Of a stretch of DNA of 64,000 bases, positions 90-52,382 are shown piece after piece. The stretch lies in assembly GCA_045654505.1 (NCBI GenBank), contig JAZONM010000018.1, positions 4,581 to 68,580 of the forward strand, written 5' to 3'. Every line of letters begins with the position of its first letter. Position 1 is the first letter of the stretch. The stretch comes from Clostridia bacterium (GTDB lineage: Bacteria > Bacillota > Clostridia > Christensenellales > UBA1242). Below the pieces are notes generated by a model. The model saw nothing but the letters and a program-made list of their open reading frames with translations, ran no database searches and was not told the DNA's origin. Made by a program: the position numbers and the translations under genes.

Positions 90-821
90 CTATAAAATAT
101 CATCATCTATATCTACACTCTGTTTTCTTGGTAAACGCTTTTTTCTTGGTTTTCTAAACATTAAGTAAAGGATAAGGAGAGTCGGAAGAGTAAGGCAAAT
201 GACAATGATTGTGCATTGGGTGTTTGTCAGCGGATTTATTATCTTGGGAGTATCCTCAATAAAGGATAATTTTTCACCATTAGGAAAAACACTCGAAATG
301 CTGCTTACATAACTACTGTAAATATATCCCTTTACATTGAGATATTCGACATAATACCAAGTGTCTTTTCCAAAATCTTCGACTGTCTCGCCAATGGTTT
401 TTCCAATATATTTTAGGCTATCGCAATTAGCGGGTAGTATGGAGATTTTATTATCGTCATTACTCTCAGGGGTGTGTCTTAGATAACAATTTTTATTGTA
501 TGTCAAAATCCTGATATTATCTGGATATGGTATAGCGGGTGTCCCATTCACTTTACGCACTGCTGTGTGTTTTACATAACCGCCAATGCCATTATAATTC
601 ACGCGATATGAGTCATGTGTTTCGCCCACAATCTCGACAAAGTACGTGCTTTCTAGTAGACATATTAGATTGTCATAGTGGGTGTCGTATATATCGTATC
701 GGTATAAAAATTCGCCACTACTAATTATCTGTGCATACTGTGTTTTTTCACAGTATGCACTTTTTATTGGGTTGAATGAGTGGGTCAATAAAAGTATAAG
801 GATAAATAAAAATTTCACCAT
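90..821 (-). CDS. Secreted, C-terminally anchored protein with probable SH3b-like domains
   Basis: N-terminal signal peptide; two SH3b-like segments (YRVNYNGIGGYV; WYYVEYLNVKGYIYSSYV); C-terminal TM helix followed by basic tail; divergent from terminase gene. Confidence 0.6.
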   Translation of the reverse strand: MVKFLFILILLLTHSFNPIKSAYCEKTQYAQIISSGEFLYRYDIYDTHYDNLICLLESTYFVEIVGETHDSYRVNYNGIGGYVKHTAVRKVNGTPAIPYPDNIRILTYNKNCYLRHTPESNDDNKISILPANCDSLKYIGKTIGETVEDFGKDTWYYVEYLNVKGYIYSSYVSSISSVFPNGEKLSFIEDTPKIINPLTNTQCTIIVICLTLPTLLILYLMFRKPRKKRLPRKQSVDIDDDIL

Positions 822-923: not shown

Positions 924-2357
924 ATGAGAAAAGATGAGATAAAAAAACGTATTTTGCTTATAAACAACGAGCTTAAAAATCGCCAAAACAATGGACGTAT
1001 ATTTGAGTACAATACGGGCGAAAAGGTGCATGAAAAACAGCTTACATTCCATAAATGTGACAAACACAACCGCTGGGTTTTTGGTGGAAATAGGAGCGGT
1101 AAGACTGAGTGTGGTGCTGTCGAGGCTTTGTGGATTGCGAGAGGTATTCATCCATATAGAGAAAATAAAGCGGATACGGAGGGTTGGGTCGTATCATTAT
1201 CTACTCAAGTGCAAAGAGATGTTGCGCAAAGAAAAATACTGCACTATATCAATAAGGATTGGATATATGACGTGGTTATGCTTAGTGGTAAAAAAGACGC
1301 TATGGAGATGGGGGTAATTGACACTCTCATTATAAAGAATGTTTTTGGAGGACTCAGTAGGATAAGTTTTAAAAGCTGTGACCAAGGTCGAGAAAAATTT
1401 CAGGGTACATCGCTTGATTGGGTTTGGTTTGATGAAGAACCACCATACGATATTTACCTTGAGTGTCTTATGCGTGTTATGGATAAAGACGGTGATATTT
1501 TTGGTACAATGACACCTTTAAAAGGGCTTTCATGGGTCTATAATACCATTTTTCTTAATGAGGGTAATAATCCTGAGGTTTGGCATATTCACATGGAGTG
1601 GGCGGATAATCCGTTTTTAAATCAAAAACAAATATCTAGGCTTTCAGAAAGTTTTGGAGAGGAGGAATTGAATGCTCGAAGATTTGGTTTGTTTTCTAGT
1701 TTTGGCGGACTTGTTTATGGCGAGTTTGATAACAATATTCATGTGATTGAGCCATTTGACGTGCCTAAGGAATGGTATGACAAGATTTCAATTGACCCAG
1801 GCTTAAAAAATCCGTTAAGTGCACACTGGTATGCTTGTGATTATGATGGAAATATATATGTAATCGCAGAGCATTATGAAAGTGATAAAGACATAATACA
1901 CCATAGTAAAAAGATATACGATATTTCGGATCGCCTTGGCTGGCATCGTAATCCTAATGGTATGATTGAGGTTTTGATTGATTCTGCTGCAAATCAACGC
2001 ACACTTGCGTCTACAAAAAGTGTAAGCGAACTCTTTTATGACAATGGTATATTAGTAAATTCACGAGTAAATAAAGATATGTTTTCAGGGATTCAGCGTG
2101 TTAAATCATATCTGAAAAACGCCAATGGCAAGGCGCGACTTTTTATATTCAAAAATTGTGTCAATATGATACGTGAAATTAAGGGTTATTTTTGGGGAAA
2201 TGAGGATTTGCCAATAAAAAAGGACGATCATGCAATGGATGACCTCAGGTACTATATTATGAGTCGTCCGGAAAATATAAAGAAAGAAAATATAAAGAGT
2301 CCAGTCCAATTAGACAAGGAGAGAAGAATAAGAGAACTTAGGAGGGAGAGAAGATGA
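924..2357 (+). CDS. Phage terminase large subunit
   Basis: Walker A GGNRSGKT, Walker B WFDEEPP, coupling motif TMTP, nuclease motifs IDPG and DDHAMDDLRY; RBS AAGGAG. Confidence 0.92.
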   Translation: MRKDEIKKRILLINNELKNRQNNGRIFEYNTGEKVHEKQLTFHKCDKHNRWVFGGNRSGKTECGAVEALWIARGIHPYRENKADTEGWVVSLSTQVQRDVAQRKILHYINKDWIYDVVMLSGKKDAMEMGVIDTLIIKNVFGGLSRISFKSCDQGREKFQGTSLDWVWFDEEPPYDIYLECLMRVMDKDGDIFGTMTPLKGLSWVYNTIFLNEGNNPEVWHIHMEWADNPFLNQKQISRLSESFGEEELNARRFGLFSSFGGLVYGEFDNNIHVIEPFDVPKEWYDKISIDPGLKNPLSAHWYACDYDGNIYVIAEHYESDKDIIHHSKKIYDISDRLGWHRNPNGMIEVLIDSAANQRTLASTKSVSELFYDNGILVNSRVNKDMFSGIQRVKSYLKNANGKARLFIFKNCVNMIREIKGYFWGNEDLPIKKDDHAMDDLRYYIMSRPENIKKENIKSPVQLDKERRIRELRRERR

Positions 2358-2638
2358 CCGATAAAGAAAAATTGGAAAAAGCATTGCTGAAGAAAGCACT
2401 TGGTTATACAGCAAAAGAAGTCAGTGAAGAGTATTCGAAGGTTGATGATGATCTTGTTTTGTCTAAGAGAAAACTTAATACAAAAAGTTATCCTCCTGAT
2501 TTGGCGTCCTTGCAATTGATGCTGTCGCGACTTGATAAAGAAGATGAGGAATTTAAAAATATGACCGATGTCGAGCTTTTACATGAAAGAGATAGGCTAA
2601 TTAAATTACTAGAAAAGGAGGAAAAAAGTGGTACTTGA
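2354..2638 (+). CDS. Terminase small subunit-like protein lacking N-terminal HTH
   Basis: EKALLKKALGY...YPPDLAS resembles the ENALLKRALGY...PPDT core of Firmicutes phage TerS; ATGA overlap with TerL stop. Confidence 0.6.
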   Translation: MTDKEKLEKALLKKALGYTAKEVSEEYSKVDDDLVLSKRKLNTKSYPPDLASLQLMLSRLDKEDEEFKNMTDVELLHERDRLIKLLEKEEKSGT

Positions 2639-2837
2639 TGAAGTGACCTATGTCGTTAAGTGCATTATTCCTGGCTGTAGGAATAATGGCAAATATCTAA
2701 TTAAAAATGAGGAAATCCAAGTACCAAGCAAAATCTGTATATGTGAAAAATGCGGAAAAGAAATTTATTCTTTGCTTGGGAAGAAAATTGTTCCGAAAAG
2801 TCCTAAAAATATTTTAAACAAAACAATAAAGAGGTGA
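2628..2837 (+). CDS. Small putative Zn-finger protein
   Basis: CIIPGC...CICEKC cysteine pattern; RBS AAGGAGG before GTG. Confidence 0.55.
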   Translation: MVLDEVTYVVKCIIPGCRNNGKYLIKNEEIQVPSKICICEKCGKEIYSLLGKKIVPKSPKNILNKTIKR

Positions 2838-2841
2838 AAAA

Positions 2842-4722
2842 GTGGATAAAGAATTTGAAGAAAAAATAGTAAAAGAAATACTAGAAGATTTTAATGAAAG
2901 ACGTCAAGCTAGAAAGAGTTTTGAGACGGCATGGCAGTTAAATATAAATTATCTTATTGGTAATCAGTATGCGTATATCAACGGCCAAAATGAAATTGTT
3001 AGTGAGAAAAAACAATATTTTTGGCAAGAACGTGAGGTTTTTAATCATATTGCGCCTTTGGTAGAACTTCGCATATCTAGACTCTCTAAAGTGCGTCCTA
3101 TACTCACAGTGCTTCCTTTTAGTGACGACCCTAAAGACGTTGCATGTGCGAAAGTAAGTAAAAATCTAATTAGGTCTGTGAGTTATGACCTTGATATGAG
3201 CCGTATAATTTCAGAAGCGACAATGTGGAGTGAAATTACTGGTAGTGCATTTTACAAAATAGGTTGGAATAATACAAAAGGCAGATTCATTGGAAAAAAT
3301 GAAACCGGTCGTGATATTTATGAAGGTGAGGTGGATATCAATGTGGTATCTCCATTTGAGATATTCCCAGACAGTAATACATACAATCGTATCGAAGATT
3401 GCAAGAGCATTATTCATGCACGTGCTTATCATAAAGACGAGGTTAGAAATATATGGGGAGTCGATGTGAAAGGTGAGGATACAGATGTATTCTCGTTACA
3501 AAATCTTAATGCTCTAGGTGGTTTAGGTTATACAGGAAATACAGCAAGTGTAGGAAAAATAGTTAAAAAGGATCAAGTAATTGTGCTTGAAAAATATGAA
3601 ATGCCTACAATTGAAAATCCAAACGGTAAATTGACAATTGTGGCAGGAGACCGATTGGTATATATGGGTGAATTGCCTTATGTTAATGGTTTGGGTGGAA
3701 AACGCGCATTCCCATTCATAAGACAAGTGAGTATAGCAGTGCCTAATTCATTCTGGGGTACATCGATAATTGAGAGATGTATACCAATTCAAAGAGCATA
3801 TAATGCTGTCAAAAACAGAAAACATGAGTTTTTGAATAGGATTTCGATGGGTGTGCTTGCTGTAGAGGATGGCTCGCTTGACATTGAAAATCTTGAAGAG
3901 GAGGGTCTGTCTCCAGGTAAAGTACTAGTGTATAGGCAAGGTGCAACACTGCCAAAACTACTTGAGAATGAAAATATCCCGTCAAGCTTTGATACTGAAG
4001 AAGAAAGACTGATGGAGGAGTTTGCTACTGTTTCTGGTGTAAATGACCTACAAAATCAAAGCGTTATGTATGGAAATGTAAGTGGTGTAGTGCTTCAATT
4101 GTTGCTCGAACAAGACGAAGCGCGCATTCAATCAAGTATTGATGAGATAAAGTCAAGTGTAAAAAACATTGCAAAACACATTTTGCGTCTATATAAGGAG
4201 TTTGCAGTAATTCCGCACACAACTCGACTTGTAAATGAGAATGGTGAAATTGAGATGTTGTATTGGAAGAACAGTGACCTTACATGTGAAGATATTGTAT
4301 TCGAAACTGAAAATGAGTTGGCTCAGACAATAGCGCAAAAGAGAAGTATGATTTTCGAAATTCTTAATGCGGGACTTCTGCAAGATGATGATGGCGAAAT
4401 GTCAAATTCGACACGACAAAAGATATTGGAACAATTAGGTTTTGGCATTTTGGAAACTTCAAAAGATGTAAAAACTCTTCATCGAAACAGGGCTAGCAAA
4501 GAAAATTATGATTTGCTTAATAAGAAAGTATTAAGGGAGCCAAAGGAGATTGATGCTCATGATATTCATATAAATGAGCATATATGCTTTGCTTTAGGAA
4601 AAGATTTTGAAAAAGCTGTTCAATACTGTCCAGAACTTGAAAAAGAGATGTATTCACATATAGCAAAACATAAAGAAATGTTAAGAAAAGAATCTTTATT
4701 TGAAGAGAATGCATCTAAATAA
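2842..4722 (+). CDS. Phage portal protein (podovirus/P22-like size)
   Basis: 626 aa between terminase and scaffold/capsid; portal-like segments (VFNHIAPLVE, VVSPFEIFPD, FWGTSIIERCIPIQRAYN); RBS GAGGTG. Confidence 0.8.
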   Translation: MDKEFEEKIVKEILEDFNERRQARKSFETAWQLNINYLIGNQYAYINGQNEIVSEKKQYFWQEREVFNHIAPLVELRISRLSKVRPILTVLPFSDDPKDVACAKVSKNLIRSVSYDLDMSRIISEATMWSEITGSAFYKIGWNNTKGRFIGKNETGRDIYEGEVDINVVSPFEIFPDSNTYNRIEDCKSIIHARAYHKDEVRNIWGVDVKGEDTDVFSLQNLNALGGLGYTGNTASVGKIVKKDQVIVLEKYEMPTIENPNGKLTIVAGDRLVYMGELPYVNGLGGKRAFPFIRQVSIAVPNSFWGTSIIERCIPIQRAYNAVKNRKHEFLNRISMGVLAVEDGSLDIENLEEEGLSPGKVLVYRQGATLPKLLENENIPSSFDTEEERLMEEFATVSGVNDLQNQSVMYGNVSGVVLQLLLEQDEARIQSSIDEIKSSVKNIAKHILRLYKEFAVIPHTTRLVNENGEIEMLYWKNSDLTCEDIVFETENELAQTIAQKRSMIFEILNAGLLQDDDGEMSNSTRQKILEQLGFGILETSKDVKTLHRNRASKENYDLLNKKVLREPKEIDAHDIHINEHICFALGKDFEKAVQYCPELEKEMYSHIAKHKEMLRKESLFEENASK

Positions 4723-4934
4723 AAATGGTGTAGTTATCGTCTAATTGATTATTAAAAAATAACAATTATACGCAAATAAATTAAAACAATTAAAGATATG
4801 AAAATATAATTATTTTCTAAACAAATAACAAAATAAAGTTTATTATAAAATGTTGTTTTTAAATTATATGTAATAGGTTATTACAATATAACTTTACAAA
4901 AATTTCCATACCACAATAAATTAAGGAGAAAAAC

Positions 4935-5549
4935 ATGATAGAAAAAGAAAGTTTTGGAGAACAACCAAAAGAGACCCCTTATGGCGTAGCGACGCAAATT
5001 GAAGAGAAGGCAGGCCTCTCTGATGGCTCTCCAATAGGTAAATTTAAAGATGCCAATATGCTTCTTTCTGCATATAATTCGCTTCAAGCAGAATTTACTA
5101 AAAAATGTCAGAAATTGGCTGAGTATGAGAAAAAACAAGACAATACTCAGGTACCTTGTTTTGATCGAGAAAATTGGCAAGATTCGGTAAACGATTTCTT
5201 TACAAAAAATCCCGAGGCTCGAGAATTGGGAGAGGAAATTGCACAGACTTTGTCTAGCGACAAAACTTTGGCCCTTGGTCAAAGCCCGCTATATGAAGCT
5301 TACAATAATATTTTGAAAAAGAAATGTACCGAAAACAATGACTTTCTGAATAATAATGACAAGATCGTAGACTATGTTTTGAAAAATGAGGACTTAGTAG
5401 GGCGATTGATTGCAAAATTTGCAGAAAGTATACCAAAGACACCTACCTTAATTTCGTCCAAGCGAAGTAGTGCGGAGGTGTTGACTCCTACAAACAAACC
5501 GAAAAATTTGGACGAAGCTAAAGAGATGGTGAATCAAATGTTTAATTAA
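4935..5549 (+). CDS. Probable capsid scaffolding protein
   Basis: Directly upstream of capsid; helical; GKFKD..LLSAYNSLQAEFTK motif resembles scaffold proteins; RBS AAGGAG. Confidence 0.6.
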   Translation: MIEKESFGEQPKETPYGVATQIEEKAGLSDGSPIGKFKDANMLLSAYNSLQAEFTKKCQKLAEYEKKQDNTQVPCFDRENWQDSVNDFFTKNPEARELGEEIAQTLSSDKTLALGQSPLYEAYNNILKKKCTENNDFLNNNDKIVDYVLKNEDLVGRLIAKFAESIPKTPTLISSKRSSAEVLTPTNKPKNLDEAKEMVNQMFN

Positions 5550-5563
5550 AAAGGAGAAATTTT

Positions 5564-6745
5564 ATGGTAACTTTATCAACAGCAGATAAAGCATTGAAAA
5601 GTGTTTATCTTGGTGTTCTTACCAATCAATTTAATCTAAACACCAATCCTTTATTTGCAAAAATCAAACAATCAAGCACATACGTAACAGGAAAAGAGGT
5701 ATTAAAAACAGCACCTTATGGAATTAATGGTGGTATTGGTGCCGGAACTGAAGACGGAGCACTTCCTACTGCAAGTGGAAATAGCTATGTGCAATTAAAA
5801 CAAACTCTTAAAAACCTATATGGTACAATTGAAATTAGTGACAAAGCAATACGCGCTAGTCAAAACAATGCAGGTGCATTTGTTAATCTTCTAAATGCCG
5901 AAATGGAGGGATTGATTAAAGCAAGTACTTTCAATTTTAGCAGAATGTTGATGGGAGATGGCTCAGGCATTTTGAGTAGAATTGTGACAGCAAGTGGCAA
6001 TTATGCGACAGTAGATAATGTGTCAAATATCATGGAAGGTATGATTGTTGACATTTTCAATGCAGATCTTGGCGAAATGCAAAATGATTATCGTGGTACA
6101 AAAATATTGAGTATTGATCGTGCTAAAAAACAAGTAACATTTGACAAAACTGTAGGTAATGTCGAAGATGTAAATGACGGCGGTTGCGCATTGATTGTAC
6201 AAAATTCATTAAATAACGAGATCTTCGGTCTAAAAGGTATTTTTGATACAGTTAATTTTCACTATATCTATGGTCTAAATCGTCAAGAACATCATTGGTT
6301 GACACCATATATTGACAAAGCAGCAGGTGAATTGTCTGATGCGAAAATCCAAACAGCAATTGACTATGTAGAAGATTATTTTGGAAGTGATATTGACTTT
6401 ATTACTTGCTCAAGTGATGTAAAACGTGCATACCAAACATATCTTGCATCTATATCTCGTAATATCGATATTATGAATCTTAATGGTGGATTTAGAGCAA
6501 TTAGTTATGCTGGTGTGCCACTACTTAGTGATAGATTTATGGAAAGTGGTACTATGTATCTTCTAAATTCTAAAAACTTCACGCTTCACCAACTTTGTGA
6601 TTGGGAATGGCTTGAAGACGAAGATGGTAGCATCTTAAAACAAAAACCTGGTTATCCTTGCTATAGTGCAACATTGGTTAAGTACGCAGAATTGATGTGC
6701 GAAAAACCATGTGGACAAGCAAAACTAGCAGGTATTACTGTATAA
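5564..6745 (+). CDS. Phage major capsid protein
   Basis: 393 aa after portal/scaffold; capsid-like segments (LKNLYGTIEISD, AEMEGL, YAGVPLLSDRF); strong RBS; followed by terminator. Confidence 0.8.
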   Translation: MVTLSTADKALKSVYLGVLTNQFNLNTNPLFAKIKQSSTYVTGKEVLKTAPYGINGGIGAGTEDGALPTASGNSYVQLKQTLKNLYGTIEISDKAIRASQNNAGAFVNLLNAEMEGLIKASTFNFSRMLMGDGSGILSRIVTASGNYATVDNVSNIMEGMIVDIFNADLGEMQNDYRGTKILSIDRAKKQVTFDKTVGNVEDVNDGGCALIVQNSLNNEIFGLKGIFDTVNFHYIYGLNRQEHHWLTPYIDKAAGELSDAKIQTAIDYVEDYFGSDIDFITCSSDVKRAYQTYLASISRNIDIMNLNGGFRAISYAGVPLLSDRFMESGTMYLLNSKNFTLHQLCDWEWLEDEDGSILKQKPGYPCYSATLVKYAELMCEKPCGQAKLAGITV

Positions 6746-6760
6746 ATTTAATATTGTGGG

Positions 6761-6790
6761 AGTGGTGGGGTATTCCCACCACTTTCTTTA
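6761..6790 (+). terminator. Intrinsic terminator after capsid gene
   Basis: AGTGGTGGG-gtatt-CCCACCACT hairpin followed by T-rich tract. Confidence 0.7.
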
Positions 6791-6805: not shown

Positions 6806-7177
6806 ATGAAGAAAATTGAAAATGATTTATTTAATATCTCTGAAAGACTTAAAAATATCGATAGTGGATATTATTTAGTATACAATAATCGTCGTAGTAG
6901 ATATGAGGTGAGAAATAGTGATTTGGGTGATAAAATTTGCTTTGTTGTGCCATACAAATCATTGGACGAAAGGACGCTAATATACGCTCGAAAAACTTTT
7001 ATAAATAATAGCAAAAAATTGCTTAGTGACATCGAGAAAAATAATAAGGATATAGAGGATAAAAATTACAATAGGATTAAGGACGAGTGTCAATACAAAT
7101 TTAAAGAAATTTTTAATTATGAAAAATGTTCGAAAGAAATGAAAATGAATCAATCATTCAAAACAAAATGGGTATAA
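6806..7177 (+). CDS. Hypothetical virion-cassette protein
   Basis: 123 aa ORF with RBS AAAGGA inside the structural operon. Confidence 0.6.
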   Translation: MKKIENDLFNISERLKNIDSGYYLVYNNRRSRYEVRNSDLGDKICFVVPYKSLDERTLIYARKTFINNSKKLLSDIEKNNKDIEDKNYNRIKDECQYKFKEIFNYEKCSKEMKMNQSFKTKWV

Positions 7178-7186
7178 GGAGGAAAA

Positions 7187-7744
7187 ATGAAAGTTAAAGA
7201 AATTTTGAAAAATTGTGCAATATTATTAGATGATATAAAACTTGCAAAAAGTATTGAGAATGGAGACTGTACTGCTCAAGAAAATGAAGTGAGAGAAATG
7301 CTTCTTGAGTGCTGTCATATAGCAAATACTCGTATCGCTAGCGAATTTGTATTTCTAAAAGATGAAGTAGAGGTTGCTACATCAAATGGCGAAATCGCTT
7401 TTGATAATCTTTCTGCTAAAAACATACTGGATATAATTGCTGTAACAAAAGATGGTTATCCTATCAAATTTAATGTAAGAAAGGCTAAAATTTACACACA
7501 AAGCGGAAAAGTGAATGTACAGTATTCTTATTTGCCTGAGAAACATGACATTGATGATGATATTGACTATTATCCTGGTAGAATAAGTGAAAGAGTAATT
7601 GCTTATGCGACAGTGTCGGAGTATTTAGCTATTAAAGGAAATATTGACGAGTCTATTATGTGGAACGATAAATTCAAATCTAGTATCTCAAAGGTCTATG
7701 CAAAACATCGTGAAATCATTTTGCCAAAGCGCGCTTGGAGGTAG
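7187..7744 (+). CDS. Probable head-tail adaptor protein
   Basis: 185 aa after capsid; helical N and C termini around beta segment (VNVQYSYLP); RBS AAGGAGG; function inferred from position. Confidence 0.5.
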   Translation: MKVKEILKNCAILLDDIKLAKSIENGDCTAQENEVREMLLECCHIANTRIASEFVFLKDEVEVATSNGEIAFDNLSAKNILDIIAVTKDGYPIKFNVRKAKIYTQSGKVNVQYSYLPEKHDIDDDIDYYPGRISERVIAYATVSEYLAIKGNIDESIMWNDKFKSSISKVYAKHREIILPKRAWR

Positions 7745-7745
7745 T

Positions 7746-9209
7746 ATGAAAAATATATTAAAATACAAAACTTACGATTATTCGTCTTTGGATAAAGGTA
7801 TTGCGGTCGATAAAAATCCTAATGTTGTTTCTTCTGGGTATTCGGAAAAGTGTTTTAATTTTTCTTACAAAGATGGTGGACTTAGAGACGGTATTGGAAT
7901 AAATGAGATTAAATATTATCCATACGGAAGCAATATTGATGTTATATATTCTTTTCCTGAGACTTTATCGCCTGTAAAAATAACTCAATTTCCATTTTAT
8001 AATGAGGAGATGAGTTATGATGATAGAATGATTATATTTATATGCGAAGATGGTAGTGTGTATGGTTGGAAACCTAATGCTTCTAGTGAAGGCTTGCTTG
8101 CTTTGCCTTTTGAAGTGACTAAGGACACTATACTATTGAATTATGTCTTTGAAAACCAGACATACTTGTATGCAATAAATGATGGGGTAATGTATATTTA
8201 CAATATGACCTCAAAACACTTGGAAAAAATTCAAGAAAACGTACCTTTATTTGAAGAAATATGCTTTTATAAAGAACATGTATTTGGCAGGATTAAGGAT
8301 AAAAAACACACTCTTTGGTGCTCGGCTCAGAAAAATCCGGCTAATTGGTTGAGTGATGTCAATACATATTCATTTATTGATTTTAATGATTTAAAAGGTA
8401 ATTGTCTAAGACTCATATCTACAATTGATGGATTATATGTTTTTAGAGAATACGGAATTTCAAAAATAATCTTCAATGAAAATGAAGGAATTTTTGAGAC
8501 AGAAGAAGTGTGTAAAAGTACGGGAAAAATCTTTGGAAACAGTATCCAAGAATGTGGCGATTCTTTTGTATATATTACGACAGACGGATTGTATACATTT
8601 AATGGGATTTCGTCAAAAAAGATAACGACTCGAATGGAAGATGTCATCAGGCGACATTTTACTCACTTCTCACTTACTGCGTACAATAATGGCAAATATT
8701 ATGTTGCTTTGAAAATCAATTATGATGATGGCATATTTAATGATGGACATTATCAAAATAATACATTGATTGAATTGGATCTTGCAGACCTTACTGAAAA
8801 CATTCTTCGCGGTGTTGGTATTGTAGAACTGTCTAGTATAAATGAAGTCAATTCTTCTTTTATGTTTGCTATTATAAATACTGTCGGAAAAAACAAGGTT
8901 GGAGTAATCGGTAGGGGTGGAAAAATATTTGGAACTCCTTTGAAAAAGTATTGGAGGAGTGTGGAAAGCGACTATGGTTTGCCACATAAAAAGAAAATAA
9001 TTAGTAGATTCTTTATCGTTTCAAAAAGTGATATAAAAATAACTTTTCATGGTGATAATAAATCGTATTATTTTCAAATAAAAGGTAGCGAAAATGTACA
9101 GATTCTAAAACCAAATCTTTCAGCATATCGCTTTAGTGTGGAAATTGAGTCTAGTAGTGCTGATAATGACATAACAAATCTTAAAGCATTGGTGGGTTAT
9201 TATGATTAA
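7746..9209 (+). CDS. Probable podovirus tail nozzle/DNA-stabilisation protein (beta-propeller)
   Basis: Start reassigned to ATG 7746 after GGAGG; beta-rich blade-like repeats (LWCSAQKNPANW, LYVFREYGI, GLYTFNG); follows adaptor. Confidence 0.5.
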   Translation: MKNILKYKTYDYSSLDKGIAVDKNPNVVSSGYSEKCFNFSYKDGGLRDGIGINEIKYYPYGSNIDVIYSFPETLSPVKITQFPFYNEEMSYDDRMIIFICEDGSVYGWKPNASSEGLLALPFEVTKDTILLNYVFENQTYLYAINDGVMYIYNMTSKHLEKIQENVPLFEEICFYKEHVFGRIKDKKHTLWCSAQKNPANWLSDVNTYSFIDFNDLKGNCLRLISTIDGLYVFREYGISKIIFNENEGIFETEEVCKSTGKIFGNSIQECGDSFVYITTDGLYTFNGISSKKITTRMEDVIRRHFTHFSLTAYNNGKYYVALKINYDDGIFNDGHYQNNTLIELDLADLTENILRGVGIVELSSINEVNSSFMFAIINTVGKNKVGVIGRGGKIFGTPLKKYWRSVESDYGLPHKKKIISRFFIVSKSDIKITFHGDNKSYYFQIKGSENVQILKPNLSAYRFSVEIESSSADNDITNLKALVGYYD

Positions 9210-10386
9210 AAGTGATAATCGCTACGTTGCGTCAATTTATGGGACCACTCGCAAGCTTAAAAAAATGTACGACAAAGTCAGCAAAAGTAAATATTCTGCC
9301 AAAATCATAAAACTAAATCTAAGTTGTGCCGAAATCAATGAAAATGCTGTAAATTTCGTATTTGATGGATTAAAAGGAAGTATTGCACAATTTGTATTAG
9401 ATATCAATCAAAATGTCGATAGTCGTATGAAGTTTTCGCTCAATAATGTGACCATAGAAGAGAAAAATATAGCAAATGGAAGAATATATTTTACAGGTAT
9501 TATAGATAGTAAAAATTATATAAAAATTTTATTTTCAGACATCTCAAATCTAAATGATTTGTCAATTGAGATAATAGGTGAAGTGGCATATCAAAACAAT
9601 TTGTTTGAGTATAAAGTAGTGAGTTATTCAGATGGTATTTTATTATGCAAAACAGCCAATCAAAAAAGAATTTATCACGCAAACACTCTAGAAAACGTCA
9701 ATGAAAAAATCGCTCAAAAAAATTGCATCGAGTATGCAAAAAATTACCTCTTGGATTATGTGTATTTGCAGGGTGTAGATGGCGAGAAAAATCAAGAAAT
9801 TATGCTAGTAAATGATGGGAATATTCTTTTGCGAAATTTATCCACAAATACAACTCTGGTTATAGCAGATAAAGCAGATATGGGCTGTGTCATAGAATGT
9901 AATAATTCGTTTTGCAAAATAGCATTAGTTGTGAATGAAAAACTATGTTTTTTCGATATCGGTAATGACATGACCGTGACAAAATTGTCAAATTTTCTTC
10001 AAATAAATGAGAAAATTTTATCGATTTCTGGTATTCAGTTGTTTTCATCTTATAGAGAGGGCCTGCTTATTACTACAGACAGAAAAACGACTTACATTGT
10101 ATTTTTTAATAGTGATAATCTTCCTTTTGTCTATGACATAATCCATCATGCAAATGATGCACAAGGCACAATAATTGCCGACAAAATGTATCTTTTTGTA
10201 AAGAATTATGATAAGGCGATTAGTATATATGTCTACCAATTCTTAGAGCAAGAATTTTATAGAAAAAAGGTTATATTTCAAAAACAATATTTTAATTGTG
10301 ATGGGATGTTTGTTTTTGACGAAAAAATACATTTTATAAGCAATGGACTATGTACGGAGGAAGGACTTGAAGAGGATATGTCCTAG
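9202..10386 (+). CDS. Hypothetical beta-rich tail-associated protein
   Basis: 394 aa ORF overlapping the previous gene; no recognisable motif. Confidence 0.45.
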   Translation: MIKSDNRYVASIYGTTRKLKKMYDKVSKSKYSAKIIKLNLSCAEINENAVNFVFDGLKGSIAQFVLDINQNVDSRMKFSLNNVTIEEKNIANGRIYFTGIIDSKNYIKILFSDISNLNDLSIEIIGEVAYQNNLFEYKVVSYSDGILLCKTANQKRIYHANTLENVNEKIAQKNCIEYAKNYLLDYVYLQGVDGEKNQEIMLVNDGNILLRNLSTNTTLVIADKADMGCVIECNNSFCKIALVVNEKLCFFDIGNDMTVTKLSNFLQINEKILSISGIQLFSSYREGLLITTDRKTTYIVFFNSDNLPFVYDIIHHANDAQGTIIADKMYLFVKNYDKAISIYVYQFLEQEFYRKKVIFQKQYFNCDGMFVFDEKIHFISNGLCTEEGLEEDMS

Positions 10387-10447
10387 TCTTGGAAAAGAGA
10401 TAATAAATCAAAATCTAAAAAAATTTCAATTTAAAGGAGGAAACTCA

Positions 10448-11137
10448 ATGTTTGACTACAATCTTGATGATGCTTTTTCTTCTGCATTAAGTATAGCTGA
10501 AAATGAAGAGATGAGCATGAAAATGACAGAGCTAAACAATAAAATCGAAAATATGACATCTACCTTGATGGGTGAGAAGGAAGAGGAAGAAGCTGAGCTT
10601 GTACCTACATGGCTTGATAAAGCACTTGACCTCGAATTTCTGTCACCAGAGGATAAGGAAGAATATGAAAAATATGACTCGCTAAATAATACTCTTACTG
10701 GTCAATTAAATGGAATTTACCTTGAAATCGAACGTCTAAACAATGATAGACTAAGAGCATTGAAAGACTTTGATATTCCGACTGTTGTGGAGATTGACAC
10801 AAAACTCCAACAACTTTCAAAAGATTATAAAGAGAAATATGCGTCAGCAGAAGATGCAAGGAAAGAAATTATGTCCAAGAAAAACGAATGGGAGATAAGT
10901 CTTGATGATTTATCAAATAGCCTTAAGGGCGAGACTTGGGACATAAAAAAATCTTTTGATGCAAGTAAATACCAAAAAAGTGTCGTAAAAGAGTACAAGA
11001 AAAACAAAACCTTTGAAATGGTCAAAGATTTTGTTGAGGCTTTTCCAGCGGATAAAAGAAAAGATGTACTCAGAAATCCCCGCATTAAAGAAATGCTAGA
11101 TGGCGACTACAATAAGTTGGTCGCTGAGTATATGTAA
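10448..11137 (+). CDS. Coiled-coil hypothetical protein (possible ejection/internal protein)
   Basis: Start reassigned to ATG 10448 after AAAGGAGG; charged helical sequence. Confidence 0.5.
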   Translation: MFDYNLDDAFSSALSIAENEEMSMKMTELNNKIENMTSTLMGEKEEEEAELVPTWLDKALDLEFLSPEDKEEYEKYDSLNNTLTGQLNGIYLEIERLNNDRLRALKDFDIPTVVEIDTKLQQLSKDYKEKYASAEDARKEIMSKKNEWEISLDDLSNSLKGETWDIKKSFDASKYQKSVVKEYKKNKTFEMVKDFVEAFPADKRKDVLRNPRIKEMLDGDYNKLVAEYM

Positions 11138-11138
11138 A

Positions 11139-11378
11139 ATGTGGGATAAGATAATAAATCTTGCATTGAGCAACGGAATTTGGGCAGTCTTATTTCTAAT
11201 GCTTTTGGTGTTTCAATTGAAAGATAGTAAAACTCGAGAAAACAAATACCAACAAACAATAGAAAATCTGGGCAATGCCCTTCAAGTGGTAAAGGAAGTG
11301 AAGGAAGACGTAGAGGAAATTAAGCAAACACTAAATACAAGAAGGAGAAAAGTAAAGGATGAAGAAAGTATTGAGTAA
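11139..11378 (+). CDS. BhlA/UviB-family holin-like protein
   Basis: MWDKIINLALSNGIWAVLFLMLL...RENKYQQTIENL, typical of BhlA/UviB; ATG 11139 just after preceding stop. Confidence 0.8.
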   Translation: MWDKIINLALSNGIWAVLFLMLLVFQLKDSKTRENKYQQTIENLGNALQVVKEVKEDVEEIKQTLNTRRRKVKDEESIE

Positions 11379-11667
11379 ATTTAAAAAGTATTCATTTTGG
11401 ATTGCTTTTACCGGAGTCGTAGTTATATTTATAAAAAACATTGCCGAGCTTTTTGGTATTGAGATAGATACCGGAGCTATAGAGAATGTGATAATGTCGT
11501 TATGTGGAGTGTTGGTCGTACTAGGTCTGGTGATTAAAGAGGACGAATCTGCAAAGGCTGAGGAAAACAATCTCTTTGAGTCAGGCAATAATGATGTAAA
11601 TGATAATTGTGAGACATCTACACCTTCAGAAAAAACAAATAATGATGACTCAAGTATAGAAAAATAA
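11359..11667 (+). CDS. Phage holin-like two-TM protein
   Basis: KFKKYSFWIAF motif, two TM helices, acidic tail. Confidence 0.6.
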   Translation: MKKVLSKFKKYSFWIAFTGVVVIFIKNIAELFGIEIDTGAIENVIMSLCGVLVVLGLVIKEDESAKAEENNLFESGNNDVNDNCETSTPSEKTNNDDSSIEK

Positions 11668-11746: not shown

Positions 11747-12697
11747 ATGTTATACAAAAATACATTCAAAATTTTATTTTCAAATGGCGGACTTATTTGG
11801 CGCGTATTGCTATTTTTGGTTTGCGCTTTAGGGGTCTTGATTGGTCTTGGTTCATTGATACTAATGCCAATCCACAAGGTGCTAGTCGGAGCCGGTTTTT
11901 TTGTCATGATAAGTGATGCTTATTATGATTTTCTTAATGCTGTCAATCTAAAACAATTGTTTGTCGATATTGGCGATATTGTTGAGAGTTTTTTTGCAAT
12001 AATTGTGGATAATATTGGTCAACTTTTACCATACATAATTATTTTTGTTTTCTTTGTTGTTTTTGTATGTACGCTTATTACTCGTTTTTATACAATGAGC
12101 ACTACAATATGTGTTAATTATTATATGAACAGTAATACTAAAGTAAAAATGTCCAACAATATTTTCGCATCGTTTGGAAAAAATATTAAGTATTTGCTTG
12201 CTTATGCTGTAACAGTACTACCAATAAATCTAATCATTTATGGTATTGTGTTCTTTATGTTGGGATTATTTGAGTTGGACGGATTGTTGTTTGCTTTTGC
12301 ACCATTTTTGATTATTCTTACATACACACTACTTGCATCGCTTAAGACAACCTTGTTTGGTGGTTGGTTGCCAGCGATTGTGTGTGGAAATAAAGGTGCT
12401 TTTGCATCAATGAAAAAAGGATTTGTTGTGCCAAAACGTAGATTTTGGCAAACATTCGGCAATTCATTTGCACTTTACCTTACTATTATATTCCTAAATT
12501 TCTTTGTAGGACTTTTAACTTTTGGTGTAGGACTTTCAATAACAATCCCAGCTACTTGTGTGACTGTTTGTATTTTTGGACTTGTAAGCTTCTATATGGC
12601 TACCGGTCAAAAATATTATGTCGATAGTTATAATGTAATAGCTCCTAAGACCAAAGAATTGACAGACAAATTTGAAAATCATAAATATATTGTTTAG
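11747..12697 (+). CDS. Multi-pass membrane protein of unknown function
   Basis: About 6 hydrophobic segments; own TGnTATAAT element upstream; terminator downstream. Confidence 0.7.
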   Translation: MLYKNTFKILFSNGGLIWRVLLFLVCALGVLIGLGSLILMPIHKVLVGAGFFVMISDAYYDFLNAVNLKQLFVDIGDIVESFFAIIVDNIGQLLPYIIIFVFFVVFVCTLITRFYTMSTTICVNYYMNSNTKVKMSNNIFASFGKNIKYLLAYAVTVLPINLIIYGIVFFMLGLFELDGLLFAFAPFLIILTYTLLASLKTTLFGGWLPAIVCGNKGAFASMKKGFVVPKRRFWQTFGNSFALYLTIIFLNFFVGLLTFGVGLSITIPATCVTVCIFGLVSFYMATGQKYYVDSYNVIAPKTKELTDKFENHKYIV

Positions 12698-12706
12698 TTT
12701 TTAATG

Positions 12707-12733
12707 AGACACTCCTCGTGAGTGTCTTTTTTT
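12707..12733 (+). terminator. Intrinsic terminator
   Basis: AGACACTC-ctcgt-GAGTGTCT followed by poly-T. Confidence 0.75.
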
Positions 12734-17517: not shown

Positions 17518-17848
17518 TACAGATAGACAGACGGTCGCAAGGTGAAAACCTTGAGGAAAGTCGGAGCATCACAGAGCAGAGTGCCAGCTAACGGCTGGTG
17601 GAGGCGACTCCAAGGAAAGTGCAACAGAAATATACCGCCCGCTTATGTGGGTAAGGGTGGAAAGGCGAGGTAAGAGCTCACCACAAATTATGGCAACATA
17701 GTTTGGCTGTAAACCCCACTTGATGCAAGATAGAAGGGCGTTTTGACCTTGCTCGGTAGTCCTTCGTTACATCGCTTGAGCTTGTAGGCGACTGCAAGCC
17801 TAGATAGATGGCCGTCCAATACAGAACTCCGCTTATGGCTATTCTGTG
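17518..17848 (+). ncRNA. rnpB: RNase P RNA
   Basis: GAGGAAAGTC, GGAAAGTGCAACAG, TAGATAGATG...ACAGAAC..GCTTA conserved blocks; TTGCAA/TATACT promoter upstream and terminator downstream; ends approximate. Confidence 0.93.
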
Positions 17849-18053
17849 TATAAAACCACTCTTTTATGGGTGGTTTTTTATTTGCCCTAATTGTATCGAT
17901 TTGCTTGAGTCGAGAAGTATTGAAATGATACAAAATACATAAAAATATCTTCAATATAAAGGTCAGAAATAAGAAAAACAATAAACTATATTATAAATAA
18001 AGTCTTTCAATAATCTTTGCTTTGTGTTATACTAATCGAAATAGGTGAAAGTC

Positions 18054-44129: not shown

Positions 44130-44240
44130 TTCAATTCAAATAGTAAAAAAGGCAAATACAAGAATTTGTCTTTTTTTATTGCAATTTGTAATAATTTGTT
44201 TTATTATATAAATAATAAAATTAGTATAATGAGGAATATT

Positions 44241-52014: not shown

Positions 52015-52101
52015 TGGTGCTAAAGACCGGAATCGAACCGGTACGGTGTTGCCACCGCAGGATTTTAAGTCCTGTGCGTCTGCCTGTTCCGCCACTTTAG
52101 C
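52015..52101 (-). tRNA. tRNA-Leu(TAA)
   Basis: GCTAAAG...CAGGA-CTTAAAA-TCCTG, long variable arm, GTTCGA, CCA. Confidence 0.95.
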
Positions 52102-52113
52102 AAAGATAGAAAA

Positions 52114-52188
52114 TGGAGGCACCACCCAGATTCGAACTGGGGCATAAAGGTTTTGCAGACCTTGGCCTTACCGCTTGGCTATGGTGCC
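52114..52188 (-). tRNA. tRNA-Cys(GCA)
   Basis: GGCACCA...AAGGT-CTGCAAA-ACCTT...TCCA. Confidence 0.95.
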
Positions 52189-52223
52189 ATCGTTTGTAAA
52201 GGTAAGTTTGACTTAAAACAAAA

Positions 52224-52298
52224 TGGAGCGGGGCTCGGGATTCGAACCCGCGACATTCGCCTTGGCAAGGCGACGCTCTACCACTGAGCCACCCCCGC
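52224..52298 (-). tRNA. tRNA-Gly(GCC)
   Basis: GCGGGGG...TCGCC-TTGCCAA-GGCGA...TCCA. Confidence 0.95.
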
Positions 52299-52306
52299 AT
52301 AAAAAA

Positions 52307-52382
52307 TGGTGGGAACTATAGGGCTCGAACCTATGACCCCCTGCTTGTAAGGCAGATGCTCTCCCAGCTGAGCTAAGCTCCC
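52307..52382 (-). tRNA. tRNA-Val(TAC)
   Basis: GGGAGCT...TCTGC-CTTACAA-GCAGG...ACCA. Confidence 0.95.

Follow-up and report, generated by a model that had tools for sequence, protein, structure and literature searches.

Immediately behind the large terminase (TerL) gene of a Clostridia bacterium (Christensenellales; UBA1242) stands a short gene whose product resembles a phage small terminase (TerS) that begins without an HTH. This locus raises the questions of whether the product, ORF94, is a relative of the phage proteins, what it has lost with respect to them, and what it could still do in the gene set to which it belongs.

The stretch of DNA analysed, referred to as the window, is 64,000 nt long (assembly GCA_045654505.1, contig JAZONM010000018.1, positions 4,581-68,580, forward strand). 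Comparison loci from 22 species-level genomes were collected with peptide patterns derived from ORF94, so that all of them carry ORF94 by design; with the window they make 23 cassettes. The cassette has the order TerL, ORF94, Zn-ribbon protein, portal, scaffold, podovirus-type capsid protein, five unknowns and two holins. Its features and neighbours in the window are:

90..821, - strand: SH3-domain membrane protein, divergent neighbour of TerL (SH3_3, E 1.9e-6; in the same place in 13/22 loci)
924..2357, + strand: large terminase TerL (Terminase_6N, E 3.3e-14; phrog_2, E 4e-29)
2354..2638, + strand: ORF94, small-terminase core without HTH (94 aa; phrog_309 match)
2628..2837, + strand: Zn69, small zinc-ribbon-like protein with four Cys in a conserved pattern and a VPKSPxN tail
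2842..4722, + strand: portal protein, P22-like (P22_portal, E 3.6e-17; phrog_156, E 8.4e-34)
4935..5549, + strand: probable scaffold, assigned from gene order alone (portal-capsid interval), with no family match; 19/22 loci
5564..6745, + strand: major capsid protein, podovirus type (capsid_maj_Podo, E 2.8e-75, 253 bits, cut-off 80; phrog_14242, E 3.3e-55)
6758..6786, + strand: terminator-like hairpin after the capsid gene, a 13-bp stem followed by a T-run (consensus match only)
6806..9209, + strand: three conserved virion-module genes (123 aa, 185 aa and ~490-521 aa)
9202..11137, + strand: two fast-evolving distal genes (394 aa and 264 aa), possible receptor-binding or tail parts
11100..11667, + strand: two holin genes (Holin_BhlA, E 5.6e-17; Phage_holin_1, E 1.4e-6)
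11747..12697, + strand: polytopic membrane protein adjoining the cassette, with no family match; a terminator-like hairpin follows at 12706-12728

ORF94 is encoded directly behind TerL

The initial annotation described a TerS-like gene downstream of TerL whose product begins almost at the block EKALLKKALGY...PPD. Inspection of the open reading frame confirmed a protein of 94 aa that contains YPPD: the first start codon past the in-frame stop is the ATG at 2354, so that an N-terminal extension is impossible. This ATG overlaps the TerL stop codon by 4 nt (ATGA) and is preceded, 7 nt 5', by the Shine-Dalgarno sequence AGGAGG. The protein is acidic overall (pI 5.3).

The position behind TerL is also as described. 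In the window, as in 21/22 loci, ORF94 lies 3' of TerL and is read in the same direction; these 21 are all the loci that reach TerL, the contig of the remaining one starting after this gene. The gap between the two genes varies from -14 to +196 nt.

Relationship of ORF94 to phage small terminases

ORF94 matched phrog_309, "terminase small subunit", with an E-value of 1.5e-5 (residues 6-79 against profile positions 197-262 of 319), and the same profile was matched by 24/24 aligned family members, with a best E-value of 1.9e-7. Only the C-terminal two thirds of the Firmicutes phage small terminases of PHROG 309 take part in the alignment. Profile-profile comparison with hhalign of the 145-sequence ORF94 family with six phage TerS gave a probability of 97.4 % and an E-value of 1.2e-11, which is partly circular since the six were picked for matching a family member; the family aligned to residues 59-145 of the 149-aa phage protein. 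The independent test of homology is therefore the PHROG scan, the E-values of which are modest.

Three queries were compared with phage records by tblastn, and only one of them, the family member P0111, reached annotated phage TerS genes: it matched 39 phage records, and most of the 30 listed matches fell under "terminase small subunit" genes. The window ORF94 gave no match at E ≤ 1e-3 among 50,697 phage records, and the member P0027 matched one record only, at E 0.05.

The mixed alignment of ORF94 and phage proteins shows no variation at E8, A10, L11, A15, G17, Y18, E22, E26, K44, P48 and L57. The core kept by ORF94 consists of a helix ending in ALLKKALGY, an acidic/basic segment E..EEY....L.KRK..TK and the sequence PPD..A..LL. 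A common core, ..ENALLKRALGY..E.T.E....TK..TK..PD.TA.., is found in the TerS of Lactococcus phage Tuc2009 (orf30), Clostridium phage phiCDHM19 (gp1), Enterococcus phage AE4_2 and Ruminococcus phage RG-TP1 (gp16), all members of PHROG 309. Judged from these alignments, ORF94 descends from a Firmicutes phage small terminase of the PHROG-309 type; the homology claimed for it at the outset is thus borne out by the PHROG 309 matches and by the profile-profile comparison.

The other sources searched did not name the protein. No family of Pfam or NCBIfam matched ORF94, and PDB sequence searches gave nothing significant either with the ORF94 family profile (best match TraI, E 0.15) or with the phage TerS profile. 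In the ESM Atlas the nearest clusters are unnamed; clusters bearing Terminase_2 were found at 0.87-0.88, which was rated as a lead only.

What ORF94 has lost

The five phage TerS of PHROG 309 compared are 149-155 aa long, one being annotated as 115 aa, and have an HTH region, an FWLKNRxPxxWRD motif and a place upstream of terL; the 94-aa ORF94 has none of the three. In their stead it has a linker of acidic character and a C-terminal segment that is amphipathic and probably helical.

The initial annotation held that in Firmicutes phages the conserved block follows an N-terminal HTH and that terS normally precedes terL. Both statements describe the phage proteins correctly. HTH-type Pfam matches, sub-threshold to threshold (HTH_23, HTH_Tnp_1, Terminase_5 and GP3_package, E 1e-5 to 1e-3), were found ahead of the block in 5/5 phage TerS, and all five annotated genes lie immediately upstream of terL. 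The matches span the N-terminal ~20-75 residues in the four full-length proteins; the fifth, the one annotated as 115 aa, begins inside the HTH region and has its match at residues 2-42.

These N-terminal ~60 aa are missing from ORF94, the alignment beginning at about residue 59 of the phage protein, which is exactly the truncation point that had been proposed. Homologues in syntenic cassettes, for which the initial annotation had proposed the same check, lack the HTH too: in 23/23 cassettes the open frame before the block is short or unconserved. At most 45 residues precede the core motif in 148/157 family proteins in which it could be located. No HTH family matched the window ORF94; a weak HTH_23 match (E 0.0075) was found in only 1/24 family members, and none of 22 longer relatives had an HTH family match. 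Among 7999 candidates scored with the family alignment, no fused or longer relative was found at E ≤ 0.01, which is weak evidence.

The motif FWLKNRxPxxWRD follows the PD turn and is invariant in the six phage TerS aligned. At this position the window ORF94 reads LQLMLSRLDKED, and the family as a whole has an LL-rich sequence. ORF94 thus differs from the phage proteins by more than a simple N-terminal deletion, and a second TerS function may have been lost together with the motif.

The ORF94 family is under purifying selection

At E ≤ 1e-3, an exhaustive search for homologues of ORF94 returned 434 representatives. Of the 33 candidates scored, 29 were short homologues (90-106 aa), and the homologues located within cassettes are 86-134 aa long. 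The median dN/dS was 0.18, calculated for the 38/253 locus pairs with 0.05 < dS < 2 (overall 0.05-0.31; 0.05-0.10 in the five pairs with least saturation). This is a real gene rather than a chance ORF, and strong purifying selection acts on it.

Two further segments of the protein are conserved: the amphipathic C-terminal segment, with D72, L75 (97 %), E78, L82 (90 %) and L86 (85 %) and a helical hydrophobic moment of ~1.0, and a basic patch, K38-R39-K40-K44.

The cassette and its neighbourhood

The TerL sequences GGNRSGKT and WFDEE, and several C-terminal Asp/His residues, are invariant in 18/18 aligned sequences; we take them to be the Walker A/B and nuclease motifs. TerL also gave a weak, sub-threshold match to the NCBIfam model of the PBSX family (E 1.2e-5; 24.9 bits, cut-off 105). 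PBSX of Bacillus subtilis is a domesticated Gram-positive phage-like element that packages random host DNA. Unlike the present cassette, it is a long-tailed, defective prophage of ~28 kb with a conventional terminase gene order, and the weak TerL match is the only link found between the two.

The three virion-module genes were found by tblastn in 20 (123 aa), 19 (185 aa) and 18 (~490-521 aa) of the 22 loci, some of the contigs in which they are missing ending earlier; the largest matched phrog_3287, "virion structural protein" (E 2e-8). The distal genes change faster: their positional equivalents in two loci, L002 and L005, are 38-40 % identical, against ~85 % identity for TerL and portal, and the 394-aa gene had no tblastn match at E ≤ 1e-4 in any of the 22 loci. 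The element measures ~11 kb, and no tail tube, tape measure or endolysin genes were recognised in it. The polytopic membrane protein gene occurs in 11/22 loci; several other contigs end before it.

Just upstream of the cassette, a protein with a sigma-region-4-type HTH is encoded in 15/22 loci. A split TerS was considered here, and the first 60 residues of four phage TerS were compared with this protein: matches were weak (E 0.011-0.87, in 10 loci), nothing was found in the window cassette, and the result was read as generic HTH similarity. Alignment of 11 SH3-TerL intergenic regions gave no clear conserved promoter.

The cassette behaves like a vertically inherited host locus

The same gene order was found in all 22 genomes, with identities of 42-70 % in TerL, portal and capsid protein. 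In 13 Christensenellales/Clostridia species the cassette occupies the same chromosomal locus, flanked by gyrA/parC-like, deacetylase and SSB-like genes on one side and by RNase J, lepA and dnaK on the other; upstream neighbours are shared in 12-13 loci and downstream neighbours in 11. Distances between cassettes follow those between the host flanks (Pearson / Mantel r 0.97, Mantel p ~2e-4, 12 loci), the means being 0.26 and 0.24 respectively. The genes of the window include no integrase, replication genes or second TerS, and no att-like repeats were found. The cassette behaves as a domesticated element, vertically inherited at one locus.

The nearest isolated phages are distant, with at most 30 % identity in TerL and at most 27 % in the capsid protein. 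In Microbacterium phage Shocker, two small ORFs separate TerL from portal and a third directly precedes terL; all three were examined as relatives of ORF94 and rejected (hhalign probability at most 0.2 %). Relatives of TerL were found in 4861 clusters at E ≤ 1e-30. The best 120 of these are at least 65 % identical to the window TerL and lie on contigs of up to 0.9 Mb; no Faecalibacterium name occurs among them. Such cassettes may thus be common in gut and rumen Clostridia, as these thousands of TerL relatives suggest.

Proposed role of ORF94

On balance, and reading from the genes alone, we favour the view that ORF94 serves as the small terminase of a GTA-like packaging, head and lysis cassette that has been domesticated and fixed in the chromosome of Christensenellales/Clostridia. 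The retained core would still oligomerise, and the C-terminal helix (D72 to L86) would touch the ATPase domain of TerL, as helix 3 of RcGTA gp1 does in its system. Contact of the patch K38-R39-K40-K44 with DNA would be independent of sequence, and a complex devoid of the HTH would have no preference for a pac site. TerL would then begin headful packaging on any cellular DNA, the podovirus-type heads would come to hold host fragments, and the particles would be set free by the two holins. The step from HTH loss to random packaging is drawn by analogy with RcGTA gp1, as presented in the available part of its description (PMC6854486); a missing HTH alone is no proof that packaging is non-specific. 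DNA recognition could be provided by the universal neighbour Zn69 or by the HTH protein encoded upstream.

The first of these two candidates leads to a different reading, in which the small terminase has two parts, ORF94 being the oligomeric, TerL-binding core and Zn69 a DNA-binding module that replaces the HTH. Packaging need not then be random, since binding by Zn69 might keep a sequence preference. A small four-Cys ORF is indeed present between ORF94 and portal in the window and in 22/22 loci (19 found by tblastn, the other three by a four-Cys ORF at the same position). All 17 aligned sequences share the cysteines C12, C17, C39 and C42 and the PKSP motif of the VPKSPxN tail; the tail is basic, and the GTG start, preceded by AAGGAGG, overlaps the 3' end of ORF94 by 11 nt. 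However, nothing significant links Zn69 to a DNA-binding family: no family matched it, and the only match in PDB, to the uS14 Zn-ribbon, was non-significant (E 0.036). The three most divergent copies lack the VPKSP tail, and the roles of small Zn-ribbons are many. We regard a two-part enzyme as unlikely, if worth keeping in view.

ORF94 might also have ceased to be a terminase subunit and been reused, for example to complete the head, to dock at the portal or to hold the TerL nuclease in check; TerL would then package DNA alone or with a TerS from elsewhere. The loss of both the HTH and the otherwise invariant FWLKNR..WRD motif, the shift of the gene from upstream to downstream of terL, and the unrelated small ORFs between TerL and portal in the most similar isolated phages are all in line with reuse; so is the statement, in the available part of PMC11841831, that GTA accessory genes often lie at other loci and that CcGTA packages without a known TerS. 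Against it, TerS is the only homology detectable for ORF94, the linkage to TerL is tight, size and layout are like those of RcGTA gp1, and a comparison of the 39 window proteins with PHROGs, covering 64 kb of the genome, revealed no other TerS-like gene. Reuse therefore appears improbable to us. The small size of the element, its lack of recognised tail tube, tape measure and endolysin genes and its shortened TerS could finally be those of a decaying prophage or a phage satellite, with ORF94 a functionless remnant of terS. A remnant would be hard to reconcile with the strong purifying selection on ORF94, with a full gene order kept across 22 species at 42-70 % identity, with a shared chromosomal locus and a divergence that matches host genes, or with intact TerL motifs and the lack of integrase and att-like repeats. 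This explanation, very improbable, was rejected on the grounds of selection, synteny and co-divergence.

Comparison with known GTA systems

The indiscriminate packaging of DNA by GTAs is ascribed to the lack of a DNA-binding domain in their small terminases. To our knowledge, the known cases rest on structure prediction of proteins without recognisable phage relatives. ORF94 aligns residue by residue with full-length phage TerS, so that what was lost, the HTH and the aromatic/basic motif, and what was retained can be read directly; both are open to domain swapping.

A GTA small terminase without a DNA-binding domain, the kind proposed here for ORF94, is already known from RcGTA gp1 and FpGTA, and the available part of PMC11841831 describes all known GTA TerS candidates as devoid of this domain. 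RcGTA gp1 (rcc01682 of Rhodobacter capsulatus) is a protein of 107 aa without DNA-binding domain, the C-terminal helix of which binds the TerL ATPase domain, according to the accessible part of its description (PMC6854486). Compared by that description, it shares with ORF94 a size of ~100 aa, a core that begins at the start of the protein and a conserved C-terminal segment, which in ORF94 is probably helical, and in both systems the gene adjoins TerL within a head-packaging cluster that is domesticated and passed on vertically. The two differ in gene order, RcGTA g1 lying upstream of terL and ORF94 downstream, and in the way they were recognised: gp1 was assigned by structure prediction and has no sequence-recognisable phage TerS relative in that account (PMC6854486), whereas the alignment of ORF94 leads to one defined family of phage TerS. 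The hosts differ as well, Alphaproteobacteria for RcGTA and Bacillota for ORF94, the latter with a podovirus-like cassette and a Zn-ribbon partner.

Searches of the literature on GTAs and terminases of Christensenellales-Clostridia for this cassette turned up only the FpGTA study (PMC12946183). Set side by side by description, operon I of FpGTA (Faecalibacterium prausnitzii) resembles the present cassette in size (~10.5 kb), in its place on the chromosome of a gut member of the Clostridia and in gene content, with TerL, portal, scaffold and capsid genes, several genes for hypothetical proteins and a putative TerS without DNA-binding domain; in both, the proteins are of the short-tailed-phage type and replication genes are lacking (PMC12946183). 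The TerS candidate of FpGTA, CDS15, is encoded upstream of TerL, whereas ORF94 is downstream, and its lysis genes form a second operon, whereas those of the present cassette lie inside it. In the same study, virus-like particles from human faeces gave signs of GTA-like packaging of Christensenellaceae DNA (3/25 events), with no locus identified in the part available (PMC12946183). The cassette is a candidate for the genetic basis of this packaging.

A wider proposal is put forward tentatively, as a possibility we hold to be somewhat doubtful: that the cassette is an ancient, vertically inherited GTA, widespread in gut Clostridia and the source of the GTA-like packaging in Christensenellaceae, and that ORF94 is the first GTA TerS with a sequence-recognisable phage ancestor. 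If this were true, domestication would have consisted in the deletion of the HTH and of FWLKNR..WRD from the TerS of a pac phage, the movement of the gene downstream of terL and a Zn-ribbon partner; it would also suggest inspecting the region downstream of terL in GTAs without a known TerS, such as CcGTA. The place of ORF94 after terL, always with a Zn-ribbon gene, provides a hint for annotation where searches upstream of terL miss TerS.

ORF94 and its neighbours

ORF94, the small-terminase (TerS)-like gene, exists as placed by the initial annotation: it encodes 94 aa, carries YPPD at residues 46-49 and lies directly downstream of the large terminase gene (TerL). After an in-frame stop, no start codon occurs before 2354, so that no upstream extension of the frame is possible. 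The ORF94 start codon overlaps the TerL stop codon (ATGA), AGGAGG is located 7 nt 5' of ORF94, and the 3' end of ORF94 overlaps by 11 nt the GTG start of a 69-aa ORF.

Features of the cassette and its borders in the window
90-821 (-): divergent neighbour of TerL, secreted or membrane protein with SH3_3 domains
924..2357: TerL, adjoining ORF94 on the 5' side (Terminase_6N E 3.3e-14, phrog_2 E 4e-29)
2354..2638 (+): ORF94
2628-2837 (+): 69-aa Zn-ribbon-like protein with four Cys residues
Then, in order: P22-like portal, scaffold-sized gene, capsid, five family-less genes, two holins
Downstream of the scaffold-sized gene: podovirus-type major capsid protein (NCBIfam capsid_maj_Podo E 2.8e-75)
6758-6786 (+): terminator-like hairpin, just past the capsid gene
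9202-11137 (+): two genes that follow the 521-aa virion protein and precede the holins
11100-11667 (+): the two holins
12706-12728 (+): terminator-like hairpin, past the membrane-protein gene that ends the cassette

No endolysin could be recognised beside the two holins.

Homology to phage small terminases

The ORF94 protein gave no match in Pfam or NCBIfam. In a scan of the PHROG library its top match was phrog_309, 'terminase small subunit' (E 1.5e-5), with residues 6-79 aligned to profile positions 197-262 of 319, a stretch running from the interior towards the C-terminal part of the model; phrog_309 was also matched by all 24 aligned homologues (best E 1.9e-7). When the ORF94 protein was compared by tblastn with 50,697 phage records, nothing was obtained at E<=1e-3. 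P0111, a more typical family member, matched 39 phage records (E from 4e-5 to 1), and most of the 30 listed matches fell under genes annotated as small terminase. Phages with such genes included those of Enterococcus, Clostridium, Ruminococcus, Lactococcus (Tuc2009), Staphylococcus, Flavonifractor and Fusobacterium.

Five phage TerS genes were retrieved; four encode 149-155 aa and one is annotated as 115 aa. The expected phage background, an HTH ahead of the core block and terS before terL, was seen in all five: each gene is immediately upstream of terL, and each product gave concordant, mostly just sub-threshold Pfam matches to HTH_23, HTH_Tnp_1, Terminase_5 or GP3_package, covering the N-terminal ~20-75 residues of the four full-length proteins and residues 2-42 of the 115-aa one.

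In a joint alignment ORF94 begins exactly at the phage block ..VENALLKRALGY.., approximately 60 residues into phage TerS. Comparing the profile of the ORF94 family (145 sequences) with that of six phage TerS gave 97.4 % probability and E 1.2e-11, a value that is partly circular because the six were chosen for matching a family member; the independent evidence is the PHROG scan. ORF94 residues 1-90 were aligned with residues 59-145 of the 149-aa TerS of Enterococcus phage AE4_2. The motif FWLKNRxPxxWRD, invariant after the PD turn in the six phage TerS compared, is missing from ORF94 and its family, which carry instead a linker of acidic character and, at the C-terminus, a conserved amphipathic segment. 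The proposed TerS homology was borne out by the phrog_309 matches and the profile comparison, and from its sequence ORF94 is very probably homologous to the TerS core and devoid of the HTH.

Absence of the HTH across the family

A word-indexed search scored 33 candidates, of which 29 were homologues 90-106 aa long, and an exhaustive representative search gave 434 clusters at E<=1e-3 and 84 at E<=1e-10. No more than 45 residues (median 17) precede the A-x-G-Y motif in 148 of 157 family proteins, the motif being located by a regular expression that missed 20 of 177. A Pfam scan found no HTH family in any of the 22 longer relatives, whose extensions are low-complexity Lys/Ala-rich tails, with one DapB chimera. 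Much longer relatives were not returned, which is weak evidence given the search method itself.

A pattern scan, with one genome per species, yielded 22 syntenic loci, all from Christensenellales, 'Christensenella sp.' or Clostridia MAGs. The presence of ORF94 in them is by construction, because the loci were located through it; that of its neighbours is not.

Cassette genes in the 22 loci, with identity to the window
TerL directly upstream of ORF94: 21/21 loci with a contig extending that far; 57-70 % (full-length matches)
Portal: 21/22; 42-65 %
Capsid: 21/22; 43-65 %
Four-Cys small ORF between ORF94 and portal: 22/22 (19 by tblastn, 3 by inspection)
BhlA-type holin: 18/22

The location of the TerS-like gene downstream of TerL, pointed out initially for the window, is thus the same in 21/21 TerL-reaching loci, with a spacing of -14 to +196 nt. 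In all 23 cassettes, the window included, a few residues lie between the start of the ORF94 homologue and its core block, and the absence of the HTH holds in 23/23; three loci have longer open frames upstream, which are not conserved and are broken up in the closest relatives.

One homologue (L014:9995-10396, 134 aa) has a C-terminal extension of NDNHEK/SDNQEK repeats. Locus L018 carries a tandem pair of capsid-gene copies (3275-4438 and 4459-5616, sharing 43 % and 46 % identity with the window capsid). The two genes preceding the holins evolve far faster than the rest of the cassette: their equivalents in L002:16701-18675 and L005:16884-18807 are 38-40 % identical, against ~85 % for TerL and portal, and the 394-aa window gene of the pair had no tblastn match in any locus. 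They could encode receptor-binding or tail parts.

Selection and inheritance of the cassette

Nei-Gojobori dN/dS of ORF94 was calculated on 253 locus pairs. The median was 0.18 (38 pairs with 0.05<dS<2), and the five least saturated pairs gave 0.05-0.10. In 18/18 TerL sequences the motifs that we take to be Walker-type and Asp/His were invariant.

The host flanks are shared. The divergent SH3-domain protein upstream is common to 13 loci; in 12 of these a polysaccharide deacetylase and an SSB-like gene lie further upstream, preceded mostly by a gyrA/parC-like gene. A downstream membrane protein is common to 11 loci and is followed by RNase J in the two loci reaching that far and in the window. 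In the 12 loci for which every marker was available, distances for TerL+portal correlated with those for two genes of the host flanks (Pearson 0.97, Spearman 0.94, Mantel p ~2e-4), with near-equal means (0.26 and 0.24).

Family scans found no integrase, repressor or replication gene in the cassette, and a search of two loci for att-like repeats at the flanks was negative. The nearest isolated phages, among them Microbacterium phage Shocker, Arthrobacter phage Jasmine and an environmental podovirus, are at most 30 % identical in TerL and 27 % in the capsid protein. TerL relatives are very numerous. Of 7999 scored, 4861 clusters reached E<=1e-30; identity was 65 % or more throughout the best 120 of the 4861, whose contigs extend to 903 kb.

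Taken together, flank synteny, co-divergence, selection, the lack of integrase and att repeats and the distance from phages mark the cassette as an old phage-derived element with vertical inheritance and not as a prophage. A decaying remnant was rejected on the selection, shared flanks, co-divergence, intact TerL motifs, missing integrase and, in the two loci searched, missing att repeats. Support for the initial interpretation is partial: it covers the TerS homology, the truncation, the conserved synteny and the domesticated state of the cassette, while random packaging with no further DNA-recognition subunit is a prediction. Our analysis shows that ORF94 derives from a phage TerS core, lacks the HTH, is linked to TerL and is under selection, within a domesticated head, packaging and lysis cassette.

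Possible mechanism and alternatives

RcGTA gp1 is described as a 107-aa protein without a DNA-binding domain, whose C-terminal helix binds the TerL ATPase domain (PMC6854486). By analogy, the ORF94 core would oligomerise, its C-terminal helix (L75 conserved in 97 %, L82 in 90 % and L86 in 85 % of the family) would touch TerL, and the conserved K38-R39-K40-K44 patch would contact DNA independently of sequence; with no pac-recognising HTH, headful packaging would begin anywhere on host DNA. We lean slightly towards this full statement, from core and TerL contact to random packaging.

The small terminase may instead be in two parts, with the Zn-ribbon neighbour as the DNA-binding half. This protein had no family match; it is universal in the cassettes, and C12, C17, C39, C42 (CX4C...CX2C) and a VPKSPxN tail are invariant in the 17 sequences aligned. 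Another candidate is a 183-238-aa sigma-70 region 4/DUF1492 HTH protein just upstream of the cassette in 15 loci (L001:7146-7697 +), matching phrog_36 'transcriptional regulator' (E 1.8e-10). Its gene converges on the SH3 gene, lies beyond the left edge of the window in the present DNA, and has a counterpart in phage AE4_2, where a sigma-like gene likewise stands ahead of terS; it is probably a late-operon activator and not a packaging factor. ORF94 may also have changed function, since two conserved TerS features are gone and the gene has been relocated.

Beside the regulator, L001:4053-6818 (-) and equivalents in 13 loci encode an ~850-920-aa protein with weak beta-propeller/NHL matches, ~25 % identical between loci where neighbouring genes are ~65 % identical; this gene evolves fast.

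Comparison with known GTAs

GTA small terminases that have no DNA-binding domain are an already known kind, to which we assign ORF94; a review describes all known GTA TerS candidates in this way (PMC11841831). In organisation, the nearest published counterpart is FpGTA of Faecalibacterium. It is a 10.5-kb operon with portal, scaffold, capsid gene and short-tailed-phage-type proteins, and its particles, of ~40 nm, hold roughly 8.4-8.9 kb DNA each (PMC12946183). Its DNA-binding-domain-less TerS candidate lies upstream of TerL, whereas ORF94 lies downstream. That text also gives GTA-like packaging in 3/25 events for Christensenellaceae, the locus not being named there (PMC12946183). In the literature searched, neither the ORF94 cassette nor a GTA with a TerS gene downstream of terL was described. 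Three points set ORF94 apart: its sequence can be shown to descend from a family of full-length phage TerS, it lies downstream of terL, and it has an obligate Zn-ribbon neighbour.

Remainder of the window

The remaining genes are housekeeping (RNase J, lepA, hemN, hrcA-grpE-dnaK-dnaJ, pcrA/uvrD-like, ligA), together with:
17519-17851 (+): RNase P RNA (262 bits)
44166-49037 (+): 1623-aa ORF, matched repeatedly by two PHROG families whose function is unknown, unrelated to the cassette
52015-52382 (-): four-tRNA cluster (Leu, Cys, Gly, Val)
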